Part shown: positions 30,201 through 57,921 of the stretch, piece by piece
Numbering within the stretch: the first letter of the stretch is position 1
Layout: every line of letters starts with the position of its first letter
DNA from: Saccostrea echinata
Taxonomy: Eukaryota
Length of the DNA stretch: 64,000 nt
Reading direction: 5' to 3'
Assembly (NCBI RefSeq): GCF_033153115.1
Contig: NW_026889752.1
Coordinates: 1,674,001-1,738,000 of the forward strand
Made by a program: the position numbers and the translations under genes
Notes under the pieces: model-generated
What the model saw: the letters and a program-made list of their open reading frames with translations, nothing else
Databases searched by the model: none
What the model was told of the DNA's origin: nothing

Positions 30201-33200
30201 ACTCAATACAGGAAATTTGTGTATGCAATGGCCACATGCTGTGACTGGTGATAGTCTCGACTTGGCTAGGCGTACGAAATGTACACAGGACGGATCTTAC
30301 AAATGTTCAGCTCTGTCTTCACTTTCTACTAATTATTAAATCCAAGAGCAACAAAAAACGTTTTATGTGCCCACTGGACCATGCAGAAGGAGAATGGAAA
30401 TAATTCTAATTTAAAGGTAAAGATGCTAGACTCAATTTATTTGTTAAAGAGAAACTTCTAGAAGTAAAACTTTACTGTACTTCTGTTTAATGCGCTATTT
30501 TCAGGGAGTGAAAATATTCTATTTAAATCAAAGATGGGAATGCAGAAGAAAACGCAAGAACTTAGGATGGTGAATTTCAAGGAGCACGTACATCCTTTAG
30601 TGAACATGTAATTATATTCTTGGATTTACATTTCAAGTGGTGCAACATATAAGTGGTTTGGCTAGAATTTATCTGCGTTTTCTGTGTTGAATCATCACCA
30701 TCTTATTTGAGGATTTCTATAACATTGCTTATTCTTCGAAGATGAAACAACTTCTCCGTTATATTTTACTATTTACTAAACATGCTAAAGCACTCTAAAA
30801 ACTGTAGTCTTTTAGAGTATCAAAAGCTGCTTCTGACAGAGAAGATAGTGGAAACGTATTTTGAAAAGTTCAAATTTGACCAAATCTACATGTACAACTG
30901 AAGCGGAACGTCAGCAGTAGGGAGATAAATGAGACATTGACGAACAAAAACAGCATTCATCTTCACCAAAGATCCAATCAGAAGTTTTACCTGTTGGAAG
31001 GTATCTCTCCTCTTTCTAGGACAGAGTAAAGAGTTATTGCTGTATTTTTTTAACTTAAAGTATTAGTTTTTTTTTTCTTTTTAAATGTCGTGGTACTCGT
31101 CATTGTTAATTAAGACCTCAGAGGAAAAGTGTGCACAGGAGAAAGCATAGATAAAATTATTTCATTAAATTAATTTGTCTTATTTTTAGTGACATTTTAT
31201 AGCGACTTTTAATTTGAATGCCAAACTGTCCTAGAAAAAAATGTTTTGAACACCGTATCAGTCTATTTCTTCATAATCTTCATTTTTCAATATTTGCTTG
31301 TCGTAAAGACAGAAATGATACAAAAATTGGTATATATTTATGACGTCGACATATTTTTGCTGTTAATGATTTGAAAAAAAATGCTATAATTAAGAAATTG
31401 TAAAATTTCTACGATGTCCAAAATTCCATTTTCTGCAACCATCCTTATTTTTCTATACAAATTTCTGTCATTTTAAATTAAATTATTTTGAAACTTTGAA
31501 AAAAAAAAATAAAATTCAATGCGGTTAATATTTAATCTTAATCATATCATGAATTAAATTTTTGATAAAAGTTTGTATCATCCGTCCTTAAGCTTGACAT
31601 ATTTGGGTACATGTAGGTTGCCAAGGGCTATCAGACACAGTCTGTCTAAATCCACCCAATTATAGACAATTCAGTTAAATGGAATAAGATGAGCGATACT
31701 TTGAGAAAAAATGACTTGATATACTGTTGAATTTTAAAAATGGCTTTAAATTTGATTGTTTTTTTTTTAATGGAATTTGTTGGCGTTATAATGGTAAGTC
31801 GCATTTATTTTGAAACTCAGAAATGTAATACGAAGAATGTGTCTACCTTGTTGGATATTTTGTCGATAAAGAAGTAAAGAACATTTAAAAAATATCAGGA
31901 TAAATAAAATGGGACAAGTGAAATTTTTGTAAACAAAATGGGTTTATAATTTGATGAAGGTCTACATACATGTATACTTTCCTTTTTTATTTGTGTGTTC
32001 AATCTACTAGTGTTGGTAAACACAATTGTCATGTTAATACGCGCGTCCTTTACTAGCCCATTTGATTTTTAAAAATTATATTCGAATACTTTTGAATCAT
32101 AAAAAAACTTTCTGTATAATTTTTTGAATTAACACATCGATACATGTGACAAACACACTCATAAAATTATTAAAACAAACAACATTGTCCAGAGAAATGT
32201 CTGTATATTTTATATCAAGCACAAAGATTTCCGGGTTCTAATGTGAAAAAAAAAGTTTTCAAAGAAAACAAAGAATTCAGGATATACTAGTATTTATTTG
32301 TTTAATTGGGGCTATAGGGAATGGGATTGGAATTTTTTTCATTTCCATGCATTGTGAAAAAAAAACAAAGTACGTTCACTTTAGATTATGAGTACTGAGA
32401 GTCAAAGCCTACTGTTGTTAAATCTATAATTGCTAGAATTAAAGATAAAATTCTAGCTAGTGATTCTCATCCAACTATAAAATTTGGCTTCTATTTTATT
32501 GAAATAATTGATGATTTATTGTAAATCAATTTGTTCCTCGAAAGTGAAAATCAAATAACCCAAATTTCAGAACATTAAAATCCAGAACTCAATTTTTGAA
32601 AGCAGAGAACAAACCCGGTGCAGTCAGGCCTATAAGAATTTTTCGTAGTCATGTTAATGTTCTCATATTAAAAAGAACAAAATAAATCAAATAACAAAAT
32701 TGTGAAAACTGTGTTCTCAAGCAAAGTCATTTTGTCAAGATAATTTTGTAGCCCTCTCTCCCACAACAAACACACATGTACAATTTGAATGCGTTAATTT
32801 ATGTATACGTAATGTATAATAAGTAAAATTTATTGAGAAGCATCCTCAGGTGGTGTAGATACAAATGTGTTCAAATCATCTGCCTGGTGTAGGGCAATGC
32901 ACTGGAGATCAAATTTCGGGACAACTTTTGTATTTAAACTTTTCAATACTTAATTGATTTCAGCGATGTGGCCTATGGGACTCTTTTTTAAATTTTGTTT
33001 ACTGGAAATGAATTTAATTACTTGTTCAAAATTTGAAATTCTATAGAATATTAAAAAAAAAAAAAAAAAACAGAAAATAAGAATCATTTGAATTTTGTGC
33101 ACCATTCATAGACTTTGTTCATGTACTTCTATCATAGGGCATAAGATGGAGGTAAACAACCCAGCAGGACAGCAGCCACCAAAATGTCTAAGGAGTAAAA

Positions 33201-33933
33201 ACAGAAAACACATAGATGTCTAAAAGATACATTTATAAAGAGACAGGAGAACAGTATTAAACAGGAAATCATCGGTATAATAATATTCTGATGACGGGTT
33301 TAACGTAAAATGGTTAACAATAGTGGTCCTTTTATTCAAGAAACATCAGGGGAAGTACTCAACAGTTCATAGTGGAAGGATTGCTAAAAACGTGTAAATG
33401 AAAATTCATATCAGATGTCAAATGATACAGATCAAGGCCCAACCACTAGGATTTTATCACAATGTTACCTACGAACTGGAACAAGGAAACCCACCTCGCA
33501 ATCAGAATTTGGAACAGTCAGTAATTTGGACCTTGACTCTCGCAAAGCATGTCAAAGTTGTGAAAAGGGATACAAATATATTTCCATCAATCTTAGGGAT
33601 AACAAAGACAAAAATGCATAATTTCTACTCTTGCATATTGTGATTGTGTTGAGTTTGCATGTATAATTTTATTTCTATTTGGAATGACTTCATAATCTAT
33701 AGGAGACTAATACATGGTCTCTTTTTTTATTCGTAAAGTGTGTGCGGTGTTCATTATTTAAATTGGTGATGATCCTCACAGCTCATTGCCCCTTTTACAT
33801 GTGCAGTATTAATTTCTTACGTTTTCAATATATTTGTATGAGAATACTAAGTTATTGTATTTTGATTGCTTCACCCACAGATTTCATCAGAGGAGTGTAT
33901 GAATTGAAATGTTTAGCTCAAGATAATTTTTGA

Positions 33934-34025
33934 GGCTCCTATAACGAAATGGTAAGAGCGTTTGCTCGAATATCATGCAGCTAAGTGTTAATCCGTACGT
34001 CGTGGGTTCGCACCCCACTACAGGA
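33934..34025 (+). mobile_element. tRNA-derived SINE-like head (mirror copy at about 20045-20135, minus strand)
   Basis: A-box-like aatggtaagagcg and B-box/T-arm-like gtgggttcgcaccccac; no clean cloverleaf. Confidence 0.4.
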
Positions 34026-34352
34026 CGTGCAGTAGGTGCAGGCACGGAAAATTTTCAAATAGCAAGGGAAGTTTAAGAAACAAAGTATTTTTTCGTTTAT
34101 AAAAAATGAGTTAAAGAAGTGTTTCATTCAGCTATTTATTAGCGTGCAGATAAAACGGTATGTGGAGGCATATGGAGGATTATTTCTATGTATTGTTTAT
34201 GTAATATTGTGCCTTAATTGGAGAATGCACATTTGTTTTTGAACTTTGACATTGTATTTCATATTTATTTTGATCACGTGTTGATAGGTCCACTTATTGT
34301 TGAATTTCGAATGTATCAACTTAAAGTAAAGATGTAGATTTTCGACTTTTCT

Positions 34353-35392
34353 GGTGAATCCACCAGTTTTTTGTCCTAATGCATAGAAAGGAACTTAGTC
34401 ATTTGTAAAGGAAAACTACGAATGCTTTTTGATTTTAATGCTTTTGGTGGATCCACCAACCACCCCACCCCCCACTTTTAATAAATACAAAGGCAATTTT
34501 GACAGTATATCATTCAGGTATCCTTGTGTATTCCTGTTTGTATTTTGGTGGATCCACCAAGTATTTGTAAGTGAAATTGAGAATGCTTTCTTATTCGATT
34601 TTTTTTTTTTTACAGTTTGGTGAGTCCACCAAACTCCTCTCTGTATTTAAGGACAATTTAGTCGAACTTTGGGTTACTTGTAGATTTTTGACTTTTCTGG
34701 TGGATCCACCAGCTTTTGCCCTTGTGTATATAAACATATTAAGGAAGTGTCACTAAGTCATTGTAAAGGAAACTTATGAATGCCTTTTGAATTTAATGCT
34801 TTTGGTGGATCCACCAAACTACCCACTACTGATAAATACAGGCGTAATGTTTACAGTATATCATTCAAGTATTCTTGTGTATTCCTGTTTGTATTTTTGA
34901 TGGATCCACCAAGTATTTATAAGAGAAAGTATGAATGTCTTGTTAGTTGAATTTTTGCATTTCAATGAGTCCACCGACTCTGTATTAAGGACAGTTTTAG
35001 TTGTTGTTGTTTTTTGTTTTTGTTTTTTTTTTTTTTGTTTTTTGTTTTGTTTTTTTTTTGGTGGCTTCACCACTCATTCTCTTTCAATGGATTGTTTCAG
35101 TGTCTTAAAACTGGTGGATTCACCAAAGTCGTTTTTAAAAGTATCATCATTATTAAAAGTAATATTGAGAATTTCACCAGATCGCTTTTATAAATTTAAG
35201 CCAAATTGTCTATTTGTAATTTTGGTGGAATCACCAAGTTCTCATGAAGATTTTTTAGGTGTTTTGTTGTTAAGTTCATCAATTCTTTGAATGGAATGTA
35301 GAATGGTCAAATTAACTCTTGTTTTCTTGGTGGAACCACCAAGATCAATCTTTATTTGAAGATATTTGATAATTCAAATTGGTGTATTCACC
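34353..35392. repeat. Mirror copy of the GGTGGATCCACC palindrome array
   Basis: Same motif series, in reverse order, as 18709-19702. Confidence 0.85.
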
Positions 35393-36040
35393 AATCCTTT
35401 GACTGTTTATATTAAATACCGATACATCATTGATCTGTTTTAACATAAAAATTGGTGTTCTCACCAATTCTTAGTCTATTCAATCAGGAAAATGAATTAA
35501 AAAAATCGTCGATTTCTGAAATTGCACTGTCTTCATTTTTCATTTTAGATATAAAAAAAGAGGACAGGAATAGAAAATCCTCTTTCTTAATGGAAACAGT
35601 TCACTGCTCTTGATAGGAGAGTCATCATTGAAATCACAACAGGCATATGTTTTAACACATGAGAACGGAATATACAATGATTGCATATTTATCAAGTAAT
35701 AATAGGAAATGAACAAAATTGGAATGATGATATTTAAAACTTACTAAAGTACCAATTGAAAGTTTATTTAGTCTAGGCATTAAAATCGATAATAATGCAA
35801 GCAAAAGCATGTAGAATACAATAATCTATAATTATTGCGAGCCATAGTCAAGTTCATGGTTTTGTAAGGAACGCTTTAAAAAAATCGCTTTATGTTTGAT
35901 CTATTTTACTCCATTATATCTGTTAAAGCCTATTTAATAATTTAACGTATAAGAAAAAATGTGCCCGAAGAAAGGTTTCAGATTTAAAAGATTCGTATGC
36001 TGATTGCATGTATTTAAGATACATGAAAGACACAAATGGA

Positions 36041-47324: not shown

Positions 47325-50170
47325 ATTTTTAAAATGAATTTGCATCTCATTAGCTGTTGAAGCAGAGAAAATACAAATTTGTCAAAGGATAAACACATTG
47401 ACAAAATTTGCTATTTTCACAATGAAGCTTGTTCATGTATTGTTTGACTGACGTACCTTCATTTTTTTTAAAATATGGACAATGGATATATATATATATA
47501 TATATTTAAAGTACTATGTCTTATATCGAAGCATTGAGTATGTTTGGAAAATCACATAGTCAAAAGGTGTTTCATATTTTACTCGATTTTTGTTTAAATG
47601 TATTATTTTATTACAAATTACTAGTATGAATTGCCACAATTTTGTTATCATATTCCTGGCAATCCATACATTTACATATCACTATATGAATTATAAATGT
47701 ATCACTCTCCATTTCTGCAAGAGTTGTTTAATGTAAATGAATCAATAGTATATTTTGGACATAATAACGAGAAATGGTTTCCCTTTTCCTGACCATCAGC
47801 ATGGTCTGAAACAGAAATTGCTAAATATTTTGTGACATATTCCTATGCTTCAAGCAATGACATTATGGGGGAAAATTCTTCCAATAACAGAGATTTTGTA
47901 AAAAGTGGATATAAAGTTACAAGAACCTGGTCTCCAATTTTAACAAACAATCTTCACAGTATTTGACGGAATTGACCTTTAATCATTTGAAATATATCTC
48001 CCAATGAAATATAATTGTAGATCAAATAGAACAAGGTCCAAAGTTTTAGAAATAACATTGCTGATGATGCTTTGTCTAATCCTAATCCAGGAAGTCTAAA
48101 CTTTAAAGAAAGATACTAAACAAAAAATGCATTCCAATCAAAGATGTACATGTATAGCGACTTTTCTCAGTATTTCGCCTGCTACAGAGGTTTAAATGGA
48201 AAGTACCTACAACTATTAATAGATTTACATGGCTCGTTGTATAAGCGGAACTGCTTCTACGTGTTTATCATTGAAAGGATTTAGTCGAATACTTATGTTC
48301 TGTTCAAAGCTAAAAATAACGCGGATACGTTAAATCTATATATTTCTCTTATATTACTTCGTAACTAGCTTCTCTGCATATACGCATGTATCACTTTAAT
48401 AAAATCAAATATATCACTTTCATATTTTTATTTTTATTTATTTTTTTTTTTTTTATTATTATTTTTTTTTTTTTGTTTGTTTGTTTGTTTTACATTTTAC
48501 AAAAGTATGTATGCACTTTTTTCTTGACTTTTTTCAAGATTTTTTTTTGTTTTGTTTTCATGAAAAGTCTTAATCACTATTCGTTTTTTTTTAAATACTG
48601 CTGCATCTTAAGTGTGTCGTCAACGCATCAACCATGTTTTTTATCTTCGTGTGTCTCTTTTTCCCGAAATAGATGAAAGTCCATGTTATATTAAGTCCAG
48701 ATAACGTTATATTTAAATGTATATGGTAAGCAGGCATGTTGGAAAAAATTGTATATAGATCTATTTTTTTTTTTCTGATGCGTGTATTATGTGGATAATA
48801 CAATGATTAAAATTAACTATATAAAGTAAAAAAAAAAAATGAAACATATACTTATAACAATAATATGTACATAAAAAATTGTAAGATTTTGGGGAAAAGG
48901 CTTGAACCAGAGACCCCAAACACGAAAATATTTCAGCGTACACCATTAGGCTACATACACTATAAAACATTGTTGTGTCTTTTGTGTATATATAGCCCGA
49001 GTGCTAGAGTTTTTCGGAAAAGAGGATATCTGAAGGATATAGTCAATTTCTAATAAGAAGACGAAGATAAAGCAAAATGATTTTAATATACTGATATTCT
49101 ATTATAAAAAATGAACGTAATCCATTCAAGATTTCTCTAATTTAAAATAGTACAAGTATACAAAAATCTGTTTTTTTTTAATGCTCCTTCAATAGATCTC
49201 AATATATACCATGCAAAATCTGTAAATTTCATTACTCTTGTCTGAGATAAATTTGACTATTTAACAAGGCACTGATAATATTATAATTTGTATTTGTTTA
49301 TAATAAGATTCACTTAATATCATAAAATATTTGAAACATTTTGGATGTCTGTAAATGCACTATATTTTAGGCCATTTTGTATCCTAAGTTCTGTATTAAA
49401 AGTGAACTTATAGATGAGTACACTAAATGAGTGTAAATTTGGGCAATACTAATGTAGTACACCTAAAAATGGAATATTGTCAAATGTTTGTTAGCAAAAT
49501 TAACAATTTTCATGCTGTCTGGTAGGGATTTTGAAGCCAACCCTGATATGCTGGCATCTGTATAATCAAGGAATGAGGTGTTGATTTCAATAATGACAAG
49601 GTTATCTTTAATATTTTATTATCATTAAATGCTCAAAGGCGTTAAGACTGATACACACCCCACAGATATCAGCTTTCAACTACACTTTAATTCTCCATAA
49701 TTCTCCATTCTTGGTATAACTATAATGAAAGTGATTATTTCGAAGGCATTTTACTTGGTCATCTCCGGATCTCTTCCTTTTGAGGAATTCACAATAGGCA
49801 CTGTAAATTTAAAATAAACCACTCGAACTACATAAAGGTTTACACTTGTCATTTATTACTTACACAGCAGAGACCAAGAACTCCTACTAGACTTCACTAG
49901 ATATCAATTCATTTCTGTTCTTAACAAAATTCTTTAAAAGTCTTTCTCGTTTTCACNNNNNNNNNNNNNNNNNNNNNNNNNNNNNNNNNNNNNNNNNNNN
50001 NNNNNNNNNNNNNNNNNNNNNNNNNNNNNNNNNNNNNNNNNNNNNNNNNNNNNNNNNNNNNNNNNNNNNNNNNNNNNNNNNNNNNNNNNNNNNNNNNNNN
50101 NNNNNNNNNNNNNNNNNNNNNNNNNNNNNNNNNNNNNNNNNNNNNNNACAAACAAGTTCACATTTAATTA

Positions 50171-50211
50171 TTACACTAAGCGCTTTCGCCGTGAGGCTCT
50201 TCAGAGTGTAA
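50171..50211 (-). ncRNA. Minimal type I hammerhead ribozyme (inverted pLTR copy)
   Basis: Exact reverse complement of 54040-54080. Confidence 0.88.
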
Positions 50212-50379
50212 CAAAGTTTATAAAAACAATACAACTTGGTTGTTATGACGTCGTTATTGTGACGTCATAAAGGCAGCATTATATATTGGCGCAGGTAAAT
50301 GTCATTAGGGCGCCGAAAGTAGAGAATTGAACATATGTACATTGTGATGAAATAGACTGTTAATTTTAAGCTATAATGT

Positions 50380-50917
50380 TCAATTTACATTTAGTTTAGG
50401 TTTAAATAATTTAACAAAGTAATCTTCCTTGGCTCTCCGTAATTGTTCATTATTTTCTAGAACTTTATAAAATGGAAATATTAAAAAGTTTCCATTCGCA
50501 CATGAATCAAAATGTTCACTGCATGGCGTATTCCTGACAGAAGGGTCCCGTATTTGTTGTTTATGGACTCTTACGCGGTCAGCTAGTTTGTTACCGGTCT
50601 GTCCAATGTAGTTTTCCCCGCATGAAGTACAAGTCATACAGTATATTAAATTTTTAGATTTGCATGACATATTCGCATTTACGGTAAATGTTTTACCACA
50701 TTTAAAAGTAAACGTCTCTCCTGTTTTTAAATAAGGACAGGTTCCACATAGGGGGTCCATACATTTGGCCACTGTGCGTATGTCTTCATTTGACGAAAAT
50801 TTGGCTCTTGTAAGGAGTTTCTTCAGGTTTGGGGGTTGGCGCCGGCTATAGATTATGTTCTTCAGGTCAATTAATTCCTTTAGATTTTGGGATTGTTGTA
50901 GAATGGGGAAGCACTGT
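50380..50917 (-). CDS. GIY-YIG endonuclease segment in the inverted copy (5'-truncated)
   Basis: Peptide identical to the C-terminus of 53341-53874 (NLIYCMTC..ENYIGQTG..RVRVH). Confidence 0.8.
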
Positions 50918-51007
50918 CAGAGAGAACCGATGTAAATATGAAATATCCTTTAGATTTTGGGATTGTTGTAGAATGGGGAAGCACTGTCAGAGAGAACCGA
51001 TGTAAAT

Positions 51008-51595
51008 ATGAAAGCCAAACTTCTTGATTTATGGAAAACAGAAGTGAAATATGAAATGGATAAATCTGCTAAAATTCTTGAAAAAAAGCAGGAGTGGCTT
51101 AATAATTATGAGAAAAATTACGGGAAAGAAGGGACGAAAAATTCCCCGAACACACAAAGAAATCGTAGGAGCAAAAGCAATGGAAATACAAAATCCGGAT
51201 ATAGAAAGGAAAACCGATTTTCTTACGCTGATGCCGTACGCAATGATAAACCACATAGATCCGAATTTCGGGCACACAACAATAACAATGCATATAAGAA
51301 CAGACCAAATAACACTCGCAACAAGGATAACCAAATGAGGAAAAACAATCAAGGAAACATGGTGAGAAATGTAAATTATCAACGGCTGACACAACCCAAC
51401 AATGCCGGAATAAGGGATCAACACTGGAATCTACCCCCTAAAAGGAACCAAAGATGGCGGACAGCACAAAACCGTTTACATGGTTTTAACAGTAAACAAG
51501 AAAATCAAACAAGGAACAATTCGGAGAATAATTTTTTGTGGAAAGGACGCTTCCACAAGGGACGACAGAAAACATTCCGATTTCTGCAAATTTAG
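51008..51595 (+). CDS. Penelope ORF1 (5'-truncated; helical N-part plus basic Asn/Arg-rich region)
   Basis: 195-aa open frame directly upstream of RT and overlapping it in a different frame. Confidence 0.6.
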   Translation: MKAKLLDLWKTEVKYEMDKSAKILEKKQEWLNNYEKNYGKEGTKNSPNTQRNRRSKSNGNTKSGYRKENRFSYADAVRNDKPHRSEFRAHNNNNAYKNRPNNTRNKDNQMRKNNQGNMVRNVNYQRLTQPNNAGIRDQHWNLPPKRNQRWRTAQNRLHGFNSKQENQTRNNSENNFLWKGRFHKGRQKTFRFLQI

Positions 51596-53874
51596 ACAAC
51601 TCAGAAGTAAGTCAAAAACAGAAAATCGATGTAAAAATTATTAATATATCTCAGAGAGATATTTCAGAAAACGAAATAAAAATTCTAGAAAAGGGTTTAA
51701 AATTCACACCCACGCCAAAACAGGATAATGTGGATCTCATAAAAGATACCGAGGAGTTTTGTCGAAAACTTAGACTTAGAGAATATTTTCAAAATGAAGA
51801 AAATATAGACGAATCTCTTGTAAGAAATAAAAGTAACTTCAAACCACCACCTAATAGAGATAAACATTTAGATGAATTTATTAAATGTTTACAAAGTTCC
51901 GCAAGAAATAATGACTTCTGTATGAATACCCGTATTAAAGATAATATCAATAGACTGGAACGAGAAGCTATCAAAAGCCTCGCAAGTGATAATTCTATTG
52001 TTATAAAGGAAGCAGATAAAGGGGGAGCAATTGTCATTATGGATATGGATCATTACAGAGAAATGGTTTTAGACCAACTTATGGACACCAACTTTTACAA
52101 AGAATTAGTTTCTAATGAGGACAGTAAAACCATATGCAAGATTAAGAAATTAACTTCTAAATTTGCGGATAATTTAACCGTGAAAGAAGTGGATTATTTA
52201 ACAAATTTCGAAAATAAATCTAGTAACTTTTATGGTTTACCAAAGATCCACAAATCCAAAGAAATACAGGACGGACTCGAAGGTAAAAACGCTTTATATA
52301 TAAAATTACCTCGACCAACAGATTTAAAGCTTAGACCAATTGTAGCTGGCCCTGCATGCCCCACGCACAGAATTAGTAACTTGTTGGATATACTTCTAAA
52401 GCCACTATGCCAACTTGTACCAAGTTATGTAAGGGATGATATGGATTTTCTTGGCCACATCCCAGATACAGTTGAAATAAATACAGAGATGGTTAGTTTT
52501 GATGTAACGAGCCTCTATACTAACATACCACATACACTTGGACTGGAAGCAATCGCTTTTTGGATCGATAAATACCGCAGTGAAATAAATGAAAGATTTT
52601 CCAAAGACTTTATCCTAGAAGGATTAAAAATAGTATTAGACCAATAACCATTTTGTTTTTGACAGCAGAAATTTTCTACAAATAAAAGGAACAGCGATGG
52701 GCACAAAAGTTGCCCCAACCTATGCCACCCTAGTACTTGGGTTTTTAGAAGAAAAATTGATCAGTGAAACAGACAGAAGATTTGGAAATCAGTTTGCCCA
52801 ATATATACGCTTTAATTGGAAGCGATATTTAGATGATTGTTTCATTTTCTGGAACAGATCTAATGAAGATTTACAAGAATTTCATTCAATTCTTAACAAT
52901 CTACACCCGTCTATTAAATTTACGGTGGAAAAAAGCGGATTGGAACTACCTTTTTTAGGTATCCTTATAATTAAGGAGGGTCGTAAAATCATAACAGATT
53001 TATACTACAAGAAAACGGATTCCCACCAATACCTTGTATTTAATTCCTGCCATCCTTCACAGGTAAAACGTAACATACCTTTTAATATGGCAAGACGTGT
53101 TTGTACCATTGTCATAGATGAAACCAGAAGAAACAGCCGTCTACAGGAATTGAAAACTTTTTTACTTAGACAAAAATATCCCAATGATCTAATAGACGTC
53201 GCTATTGAAAGGGCCAAGTCAATACCAACTACAGATCTCCGGAGTTCTACAAGAGCAGGGGCCCAGGAAAACAATAAAGAAATCCCGCTTGTCGTTACAC
53301 ATAACCCCCGGAACCTTAATATGTATAATTCCGTAAAACAGTGCTTCCCCATTCTACAACAATCCCAAAATCTAAAGGAATTAATGACCTGAAGAACATA
53401 ATCTATAGCCGGCGCCAACCCCCAAACCTGAAGAAACTCCTTACAAGAGCCAAATTTTCGTCAAATGAAGACATACGCACAGTGGCCAAATGTATGGACC
53501 CCCTATGTGGAACCTGTCCTTATTTAAAAACAGGAGAGACGTTTACTTTTAAATGTGGTAAAACATTTACCGTAAATGCGAATATGTCATGCAAATCTAA
53601 AAATTTAATATACTGTATGACTTGTACTTCATGCGGGGAAAACTACATTGGACAGACCGGTAACAAACTAGCTGACCGCGTAAGAGTCCATAAACAACAA
53701 ATACGGGACCCTTCTGTCAGGAATACGCCATGCAGTGAACATTTTGATTCATGTGCGAATGGAAACTTTTTAATATTTCCATTTTATAAAGTTCTAGAAA
53801 ATAATGAACAATTACGGAGAGCCAAGGAAGATTACTTTGTTAAATTATTTAAACCTAAACTAAATGTAAATTGA
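51532..53874 (+). CDS. Penelope RT-GIY-YIG polyprotein, broken by two single-base frameshifts (about 52642 and about 53389)
   Basis: ORFs 51538-52647, 52697-53392 and 53341-53874 join into one. Removing one C gives LDNNHFVFDSRNFLQIKGTAMGTK; adding one T gives KELIDLKNIIYSRRQ. Confidence 0.9.
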
Positions 53875-54039
53875 ACATTATAGCTTAAAATTAAGTCTAT
53901 TTCATCACAATGTACATATGTTCAATTCTCTACTTTCGGCGCCCTAATGACATTTACCTGCGCCAATATATAATGCTGCCTTTATGACGTCACAATAACG
54001 ACGTCATAACAACCAAGTTGTATTGTTTTATAAACTTTG

Positions 54040-54080
54040 TTACACTCTGAAGAGCCTCACGGCGAAAGCGCTTAGTGTAA
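54040..54080 (+). ncRNA. Minimal type I hammerhead ribozyme in the pLTR
   Basis: ttacact-CTGAAGA-gcc tcac ggc-GAAA-gcgc-TT-agtgtaa. Stem I is 7 bp, stem II is 3 bp, stem III is palindromic (agcgct), and the cleavage triplet is CUU. Confidence 0.9.
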
Positions 54081-54162
54081 TAATTAAATGTGAACTTGTT
54101 TGTTTATCTTGGATTTTATTTTAATTTATAACCTACCTATACCGTGGACTTTTACTACAATT

Positions 54163-54167
<5 letters not shown>

Positions 54168-54245
<78 letters not shown>
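54168..54245. repeat. (TA)n microsatellite at the Penelope 3' boundary
   Basis: Direct reading. Confidence 0.95.
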
Positions 54246-55163: not shown

Positions 55164-55776
55164 CAGACCCTGAAACGTGCTACTACCCCACACGCTCGCT
55201 GCACGAACGGTACACGCTGCACGGTTTAACACAAAACGCTACACGGTTTACACGAAACGCTTTGCACGAAAGGCTGCACGGTTTACACGAAAGCCTGCAC
55301 GAAACGCTTTGTACACGTTTCTCACACGCTTTGTACACGATTCTCGCATGCTTTAGCTTCGATCTGGATTTTCTATTCGGAATCTCTCGGACTTTATTTC
55401 AATTATTACGGATTAATCAAAGAGTAGTTAAGAATTACAATCATTCAGATTAGGTTAAGAATTAAACTCGCTACACCAGTACTATATCAACAGATAAAAT
55501 ACTCAATGTTTAGTTGTAATTAATGAATAGTTTTCATTGAGTATGTGACCCGCCCGGTAAAATGCTTATCATCGTCAAACTTTTTTCACTAGACTCTAAA
55601 TTACGCACTGAAAAAAAATAATCATATTTGTAATTCATAAACTTTTATTACTGACAAATAAACTGACAAATAAACTCAGTTTCACAGTTATATTTGAAAA
55701 AAAATATTGACTAAATTGTGTATGATTTCTGTAAACGGATTGATTTTCTTTTCCTTTTTTTAAAATATTGATTGAT

Positions 55777-55819
<43 letters not shown>

Positions 55820-57921
55820 TTTTTTTTTTTTTTTTTTTTTGATTTAGTAAAGAAAATAATTTCATTTGATTAAATTAGGTTCTGTTTATAATTTACGAAG
55901 GCAACATGTACACTGCATCAAACAGGAACATTGTGCAGGAAAGGGGGGGGGGGTAGATTACCGAGATCTTACTGTTGTATCTTCAAATCTGTACATGGCT
56001 AAATATAACGGGCTCTTGTTTCAGTAAGTGAACCATCGGGAAAAAAATATTATAGAAACAAGTGCCCGTTCTAAGAAAAAAAAAGAAGATATTCATGTCT
56101 CCAGCTGGACCCGATACATGTAATTCATTAATATGCACTTTATTCAGAATGGTAAATATATCGTTTCATTACAGAGTTAAACTTTAATTTATCATTAAAA
56201 TCTTATATGGTAGAGAAGCCGTGGGGATATGTATTGTAATTATTTAGTTCTCTTTTCAGGCATTGTGTTTATCAAATATCAATATACCCCCACCTTTTAA
56301 AATCCTTGATTTCAAACCCCGTCTAGAAAAAAAAAATCAATAATTACGTAATCAATAGTTGCGGCTCTTAACAATACATTCAATATATATGTATACATGT
56401 CCTATGTCCTAAAGCCTAAAAAATTATGCTCTAGAACTGCGTGATTAATAAAAACAATTAATATATAATTATATAGGATTCTTTATATTATTTTATTCAC
56501 GAATACACTGGCAAATTTATTCACTGCTTACAGACAATCGGATAAATTTAAGAATAAAATCCACGGGTATTACTGTTTAATTAATCAAACGTTATTGTCG
56601 GGTGTCATCTTAGCTATAATTGACAAGAGATAATAGCAGAACAAGTTTTCAGTCCCGGCACGCGGAGTCCGTGATCGCTGTTGTAAATGACCTTGATCAC
56701 AGTCGTTAGAAGAGTGTTGAAAGTGTAAAGAAGAATCCAATATATTTTTTAAGGGTGCATCGGGTGCACCCCATCGAAAAAAGCAATAATTTTCTTACAA
56801 AAGAAAATTATCAATAAAACACTTGTTTACAACAAAAACCCAGTTTGTGTTTTCATTTGACCCCCCCCCCCCACCCCCCACCCCCCCCCCCCCCCCGAAA
56901 CATTTAACCTTGTATTTGCCGATGTATCTGAATTATAATACATTTATGTGACTTTTATTTATCAACCGATTTTATGCATAAAAAGACAATAAATGACTCA
57001 TCGTTTTCAAAATTATTTGTATCACAATCTTGTAATATAAGAAAAATATGTTCGTTTATAAAGAAAATCAATTAAATGTGCTCCCCGGCCTAGAAGTCCT
57101 ATACTTCACATTTAGAGCAACGCACTAAATTTTGCATTTTATTTCTCACGCCTGCCATACATGTATCTATCTATTATTTTGTATTAAACACCGATATGTT
57201 CTTGTCATCTCTATATCCAACATACAATGGTGAAGATACATGTATTCAAATAAATGAAAATGAATGAAAAGGACAAGACCGGATTCCTGATGAATTTTCT
57301 TTTAAAAAAATATTCAGTATTGTTCCCTTTAAAAAATGCATTGAATCAATTACCTTAAAATTGAAGTGCATATAATTAATTACTTTTAACACATTTTCTG
57401 TCAATCTTTATTTAAATAAATAAATAAAGAAAATCAAACAAATATGTAATACATTACCGAATAATTTTATTCTGTTGTTTCCGTATTTTTTCACTCTTAA
57501 AATACCACCGGTATGATATATCCGAATAATATTAGTTACAAACAACACAGAATGACATGTTGATCCAACAATAGTCTTATTTAAAATAAAAGGACTTCCG
57601 AATGAATCCTACACGTTTCTCACACGATTCTTGCACGAAAGTCGCACGTTTCTCACACGGTTCTTACACGAAAGTCACACGTTTCTCACACGGTTCTTAC
57701 ACGAAAGTCGCACGTTTCTCACACGCTTCTCGCACGCTCGCTACACGGTTTGCAGAAACGCTTTGGAGCTTACACGAAACGCTGCACAGTTTACACGAAA
57801 CGCTACACGGTTTGCACGAAACGCTGCACGGTTTACACGAAACGCTACACGGTTTGCACGAAACGAAAAGCGCACGAAAGTCACATGCTTTTTTGGGGGT
57901 AGTAGCACGTTTCAGGGTCTG
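55164..57921. mobile_element. TA-flanked non-autonomous TIR element (MITE-like), 2.76 kb
   Basis: Perfect 26-bp TIR cagaccctgaaacgtgctactacccc (55164-55189 and 57896-57921). TA on both flanks. Subterminal 21-bp (acacgaaacgctgcacggttt) and 33-bp repeats. Confidence 0.88.

Follow-up and report, generated by a model that had tools for sequence, protein, structure and literature searches.

A candidate programmed −1 ribosomal frameshift between ORF1 and the reverse transcriptase frame of a Neptune-like Penelope element from Saccostrea echinata

The Penelope-like element and its surroundings

The window, i.e., the whole 64,000-nucleotide stretch of Saccostrea echinata DNA that was analysed, contains on its + strand, at about 50987-54166, a young Penelope-like element truncated at its 5' end (Table 1). 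Ahead of it lies its 3' part once more, as an inverted copy, and on the other side it adjoins a (TA)n run, which is the likely insertion target; a sibling copy, L011, likewise adjoins (TA)n. The pseudo-LTR typical of these elements is represented by the inverted 3' copy in the window and by a tandem upstream copy in the siblings L007 and L009. Its hammerhead-like motif, compared with the description in the accessible part of PMC4209133, comprises, as read by eye, a catalytic core, a 7-bp helix I, a 3-bp helix II, and a palindromic helix III; an Rfam scan gave no match.

The translation of the window matched the Pfam families GIY-YIG above the cut-off (E 8e-7) and RVT_1 below it (E 5e-4), in the order found in endonuclease-bearing Penelope-like elements, a reverse transcriptase (RT) followed by a C-terminal GIY-YIG domain. 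The GIY motif is preceded by a Cys-rich linker, C-x4-C-x2-C, and the GIY-YIG domain contains a CxxC and two later His residues, which corresponds to the Neptune pattern (CX2-5CxxC in the linker from RT to endonuclease and a CCHH within the latter), a pattern not specific for Neptune, since Nematis has it too. As judged from its translation, the element may be described as a Neptune-like, endonuclease-bearing Penelope retrotransposon, and its linker and CCHH motifs agree with what PMC8557442 describes for Neptune/Nematis. The window copy is dead owing to its 5' truncation and two private breaks of ORF2, of which the one near 52641 is absent from all 13 other aligned copies and the one near 53385 from the window copy's own inverted duplicate and three other loci.

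Table 1. Features of the element and its flanks (positions in the window)
Feature	Position	Strand	Remarks
Inverted duplicate of the element 3' part (endonuclease gene end and pseudo-LTR)	50148..50987	-	Left end enters a masked N stretch
ORF1 3' half (end of helical domain, then basic low-complexity tail)	50987..51595	+	Stop 51593-51595; full length 397 aa in sibling L007
Slippery heptamer T TTT TTG, phase X XXY YYZ; RT frame opening	51532..51538	+	
Predicted hairpin pairing with the heptamer itself	51532..51562	+	Not conserved across families; not at the classical stimulator position
ORF2 (RT, CxxxxCxxC linker, GIY-YIG endonuclease), -1 frame	51532..53874	+	Broken in the window copy
ORF2 breaks private to the window copy	Extra base near 52641; missing base near 53385	+	
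Hammerhead-ribozyme-like motif in pseudo-LTR	54040..54080	+	By-eye reading
3' "tail", same sequence as after the upstream pseudo-LTR in full-length copies	54104..54166	+	
(TA)n microsatellite at the 3' junction	54167..54245	.	

Other repeats are present in the window. Positions 18596-22321 and 32066-35505 form an inverted duplication of ~3.7 kb, 82-97% complementary, with arms some 10-16 kb apart; a tandem array of ~166-nt units at 22479-24045 looks like a satellite or like a non-autonomous element's core; and two related clusters of 11- and 21-nt short repeats lie at 55180-55360 and 57578-57872.

In the model of the ORF1 protein, residues 5-240 form long helices (pLDDT above 80 for the most part), and a basic, disordered tail comes after them. 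No Pfam family was found in ORF1 at E under 0.01 among 13 members (capsid, zinc-knuckle, RRM, and esterase domains were sought), Foldseek with the model returned no match at E 0.001, and an Atlas search with ORF1 gave no usable match. VIA-align of the model reached a best Z of 8.6 with generic three-helix bundles, a value within the chance range for helical models. These blank searches do not show that ORF1 has a new fold. Going by the model, we infer that ORF1 may be a gag-like coiled-coil oligomer whose basic disordered tail would bind the RNA of the element.

The ORF1–ORF2 junction within and beyond the genome

At the junction ORF1 reads AAT TTT TTG TGG (N-F-L-W), and the RT frame opens at the heptamer, directly after the TAA at 51529-51531, in the −1 register relative to ORF1. 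The two frames overlap by 64 nt, and the overlap contains T TTT TTG in the zero-frame phase X XXY YYZ, as in a canonical −1 site; the phasing and the −1 opening, both asserted in the preliminary description, were confirmed from the sequence and its open reading frames. The same description held that the RT frame lacks an ATG for more than 100 codons. This is correct for the window copy, with its first Met at codon 131, but it is not a family trait: a Met at codon 49, within the first conserved RT motif, is present in 9 of the 10 scored copies of the family (family 1), and the late first Met of the window copy results from a private ATG>ATA change at that codon. The heptamer of a single copy is weak evidence, since T6(A/G) is common in the window (188 occurrences seen vs 179 expected), and the weight comes from conservation across families. 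Within ORF1, T6(A/G) in the ORF1 phase was found at none of 2093 other coding positions (7 families).

A DNA search of the genome gave 24 matches, and 11 family copies span the junction. The −1 register is kept in nine of them, L006 having one base fewer and L009 one base more, so the alignment of siblings does not bear out a longer T-run that would make a single ORF, the outcome named beforehand as refuting a frameshift. The shift is not a copy-specific indel, since 9/11 copies keep the register while the two other breaks of the window copy are private. In siblings, the RT-endonuclease frame is open from the heptamer for 780-782 codons, and the two-ORF layout is borne out by L007, in which a complete ORF1 of 397 aa lies behind a tandem pseudo-LTR. 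The one ORF that canonical endonuclease-bearing elements have is thus replaced by two overlapping ORFs in these 9/11 copies as well as in related families.

These families were found by a protein search with the RT N-terminus, from which 150 of 371 candidates were scored and 110 of those 150 loci examined (the 30 best and 80 hand-picked to spread over identity). The 110 loci fell into 23 families at 82% nucleotide identity, with RT N-terminal identity down to 30%. T TTT TT(A/G) occupies the same place in 12 of the 23 sampled families (U UUU UUA in nine, U UUU UUG in three). In ten of the 12 it is in phase with the downstream RT and lies 63-114 nt before the first conserved motif, and nine of these ten have at least one copy with an ORF1 homologue in the +1 frame; the copies of families 8 and 10 are too decayed for the phase to be checked against RT. 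Among the 63 junction-spanning copies of the 12 heptamer families (12 reference copies included), T6(A/G) is intact in 53 and the register is kept in 52 and lost in 11. The codon before Phe-Leu varies (AAT, CAT, TAT, TCT, CCT, i.e., five amino acids), with T always as its final base; Phe is always TTT and Leu always TTA or TTG, whereas elsewhere in ORF1 the TTT to TTC ratio is 31 : 26 and TTR accounts for 56 of 127 Leu codons. The site is therefore conserved at synonymous positions.

Of the families outside this set, family 9 is represented by a single decayed copy in which the run is altered, and family 19 by a single truncated one; the remaining nine have neither an ORF1 homologue nor the heptamer and look single-ORF. 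In a midpoint-rooted tree limited to the 13 families of this genome whose RT is open for 250 codons or more (ten families being omitted for short frames), the seven included heptamer families group with family 19 in one clade (100/100), and the five others lie outside it. The agreement across families is not fully independent, because they share ancestry.

Several N-terminal arrangements were met among the sampled loci. Family 17 (L115, L117, L118, L123, L124, L130) is a single-ORF Penelope with a helical N-terminal extension of 160-250 aa in frame with RT, having only a short IxPxxFxI-like motif in common with ORF1; homology of the two was considered and is not supported (a match of 12 columns, probability 0.2%). 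Upstream of the RT start, L116 carries an in-frame N-terminal stretch with GYGNCFYRC..., which we take to be an OTU-like cysteine-protease signature. Families 14, 16, 20, 22, and 23 (e.g., L097, L132, L129) are compact, with a short basic leader of the M(A/G)RRF type just before the RT motif and no ORF1.

Beyond this genome, a profile of 13 ORF1s compared with representatives at 50% identity found 1122 clusters at E 0.001. Among the best 150 of these 1122 clusters, 92 are 330-560 aa long and were counted as full-length. Phe-Leu occurs in the last 45 residues of 81 of the 92, vs 8/92 and 5/92 in control windows and a mean of 7 in shuffled tails; with fragments included, the count is 100 of the best 150. 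The residue before Phe-Leu is K, E, Q, M, or W in none of the 81 proteins, vs 13-21/81 at every position from -2 to -7 (P about 3e-8). Codons for these residues cannot end in T, and their exclusion is therefore a protein-level trace of T TTT TTR. We infer that an RT probably follows in the −1 frame behind these 81 ORF1 homologues. The closest named homologue, 80% identical, comes from the oyster Saccostrea cucullata, and the Phe-Leu tail is found in named homologues from this species and from Mytilus galloprovincialis. In a Mytilus protein model the ORF1 tail continues straight into RT, which can be read as a gene-prediction patch over the shift. Longer ORF1 homologues (740-2110 aa), sought as fused forms, were not found, which is weak evidence.

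Three contigs of a related organism (from RNA or presumed-RNA runs), about 88-90% identical, cross the junction without a gap or joint; being contigs only, they are not proof of transcription. They have no listed change at 51525-51561. The contigs from runs X1-X3, the largest share, do not reach the junction, and none of the relatives' DNA was confirmed in metagenome contigs. A second stretch of 45 nt, at 51573-51617 in the window, likewise has no listed change in the related-organism contigs; a long hairpin is weakly predicted 33 nt beyond the heptamer, and its 5' arm and this stretch overlap.

RNA structure at the site and alternative explanations

Canonical −1 sites have a stem-loop or pseudoknot 5-9 nt downstream, and none was found here, though a long-range or complex fold may exist. 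Sequence 3' of the normal spacer folds no better than shuffles in the window (z -0.45 to -1.06), no 3' hairpin at the 5-9 nt spacing is conserved (z -1.8 to +2.1 in 18 copies), and in a crude scan for pseudoknots one of 15 copies did better than its shuffles. The 8-bp hairpin ttgtggaa/ttccacaa, which the preliminary description had placed at the site, does exist there and includes the heptamer (-11.8 kcal/mol; z -2.2 when the downstream part is shuffled), but as a stimulator it is in the wrong place and is not conserved. A hairpin sequestering the heptamer was also considered as a general feature and rejected: it is strong in the window family and in two other copies, but the mean z over 15 copies is -0.5. 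The apparent lack of a conserved stimulator weakens the frameshift reading without excluding it, because in the Semliki Forest virus U UUU UUA directs a shift with a 3' stimulator that has no structure, as stated in the accessible parts of PMC2569925 and PMC5009743.

In the ORF1 tails of families 7, 8, 11, 12, and 13 (e.g., L065, L079, L091) a conserved peptide, FLGGGK..QG, and a G-rich sequence come directly after the shift site. This stretch is a candidate for a sequence-level stimulator or an ORF1 motif.

The T-run might instead be the pyrimidine tract of a 3' splice site, with retention or removal of an intron switching between ORF1 alone and an RT-coding mRNA. In 9 of the 12 heptamer families TTTTTTAG, followed by a G across the presumed cut, forms a plausible 3' splice site, the codon after Phe-Leu starts with G in 57/81 proteins, and introns occur in Penelope-like elements (PMC8557442, accessible text). 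However, three families, including that of the window, read TTTTTTG TGG and have their first AG 5-57 nt further, in differing phases, and in at least 13 of the 81 proteins an AG is impossible after Phe-Leu, because the next codon (Y, W, F) starts with T. A check for an intron had been recommended at the outset; it revealed no in-frame GT within 400 nt upstream in the window family, and donors in 11 of the other 13 copies scored under 1.5 bits with a generic matrix. The passage of the three related-organism contigs through the site without a joint weighs, if weakly, in the same direction, and splicing appears quite improbable. Nor is it at all likely that stuttering of RNA polymerase II (or RT) adds one U on the T-run to give an in-frame fusion mRNA. 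One extra T would yield the same protein, the run has gained or lost a base in a few genomic copies (L009, L040, L006), and a fixed phase could come from shared ancestry. Nevertheless, six T's are short for polymerase slippage, the related-organism contigs carry no insertion, and the run is kept at six T's, in one codon phase and with A or G in the seventh position, across proteins under 50% identical; a run so constant in one phase fits tRNA re-pairing.

Separate translation of ORF2 from its first Met, by re-initiation or from a shorter transcript, could make use of Met49 in 9/10 copies of family 1 and of a Met that some copies of families 2, 4, 5, and 10 have ahead of the first motif. Met49, however, sits inside the first conserved motif and is not common to the families, and in families 3, 5, 6, 7, 11, and 13, six of the best-preserved, the first Met of the RT frame comes only at codons 72-181, well inside the conserved region. 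Since such a start would, moreover, leave the conserved heptamer unexplained, it can be given little credence. That a single-ORF element was altered by a homopolymer mutation or by an assembly error is the least probable of the explanations and may be counted as refuted: the fusion of L009 in frame and the abundance of T6R in this genome speak for it, but L009 has other breaks, and the −1 register is the majority state in the family, across families, and across species. That no ORF1 homologue of 740-2110 aa was found is a further, weak, argument against it.

Proposed expression strategy and known systems

A programmed −1 ribosomal frameshift on U UUU UUG in a Neptune-like endonuclease-bearing element is the probable explanation of the junction. 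The gag/pol-like two-ORF expression suggested in the preliminary description is supported, at the level of sequence, by conservation of the register and the heptamer across families and organisms. Ribosomes would slip back one base on U UUU UU(A/G) by tandem tRNA slippage; most of them would stop, giving an ORF1 protein of ~400 aa, and a minority would shift to produce a predicted ORF1-RT-endonuclease fusion of ~1,160 aa (379 + about 778 residues, as calculated). The efficiency is probably a few percent, because no structured stimulator is conserved.

More tentatively, and with considerable doubt, a large clade of endonuclease-bearing Penelope elements (>1,100 ORF1 clusters at 50% identity) might use an ancient structure-free shift on U UUU UU(A/G), the stimulus coming from the purine-rich sequence on the 3' side, from the basic tail of nascent ORF1, or from the ORF1 protein, with ORF1 forming an undescribed family of particle- or RNP-forming proteins. 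Were this true, structure-free frameshifting could be dissected on hundreds of naturally varying HIV-type shift sites. With a −1 frameshift, the annotation of these abundant invertebrate elements changes to two ORFs joined by recoding, where a single broken ORF or a spurious intron might otherwise be assigned, and studies of retrotransposition would need to express the transframe fusion alongside an excess of ORF1. Since telomerase and the Penelope-like RTs are sister groups, a gag-pol-like expression ratio bears on the assembly of Penelope-like RNPs.

Arkhipova et al. reportedly described, in 2017, a slippery site in Athena/Terminon elements. Canonical endonuclease-bearing elements are single-ORF according to the abstract of PMC8557442, and the accessible text of PMC6431247 likewise assigns one ORF to elements with the endonuclease and two to those without it. 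The novelty of the shift is lower than the preliminary description implied, since the legend to Fig. 1 of Craig et al. 2021 (PMC8557442), on animal Penelope-like elements, says that a frameshift with a pseudoknot can set ORF1 apart; the supplement of that paper, as far as accessible, has no relevant mention. No account of such a Penelope shift is present in the accessible parts of PMC3846280, PMC5408684, PMC5718144, PMC4209133, and a 2026 bioRxiv preprint, nor is Penelope mentioned in the accessible part of the frameshifting review PMC5009743. Literature searches for Penelope with slippery site, or with programmed frameshift and pseudoknot, found nothing; the primary Athena/Terminon papers were outside their scope, and absence from print is not implied. 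A frameshift in this class is already in print, and what is new is how widely the site is conserved, an ORF1 family without classification, and a structured stimulator that seems to be missing.

The element shares with the GIY-YIG-bearing Neptune clade the RT, the Cys-rich linker, the C-terminal GIY-YIG with CxxC, the pseudo-LTR, in which a putative hammerhead motif was read, and the inverted duplication of the 3' part. In a killifish Neptune consensus, too, ORF2 is preceded by an ORF1 that has no assignment, but the accessible part of PMC12602865 gives the two as non-overlapping and ATG-defined, with no frameshift reported, whereas here they overlap by 64 nt at a phased heptamer. The two-ORF Penelope-like elements of Craig et al. 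2021 resemble ours in having a coiled-coil ORF1 upstream of RT with a frameshift between; their legend pairs the frameshift with a pseudoknot, which was not found here, and may concern only the endonuclease-less Athena/Coprina elements or Neptune as well (PMC8557442, accessible part). The heptamer of HIV-1 gag-pol and alphavirus 6K/TF is of the same class, U UUU UUA, as in the Penelope families, and for 6K/TF the evidence is of the same kind, i.e., synonymous-site conservation (PMC2569925, accessible part). Unlike HIV-1 and the alphaviruses, the host of the shift is here a non-LTR-type retroelement without a protease or capsid, and with no stable 3' stem-loop it comes closer to the structure-less case of the Semliki Forest virus.
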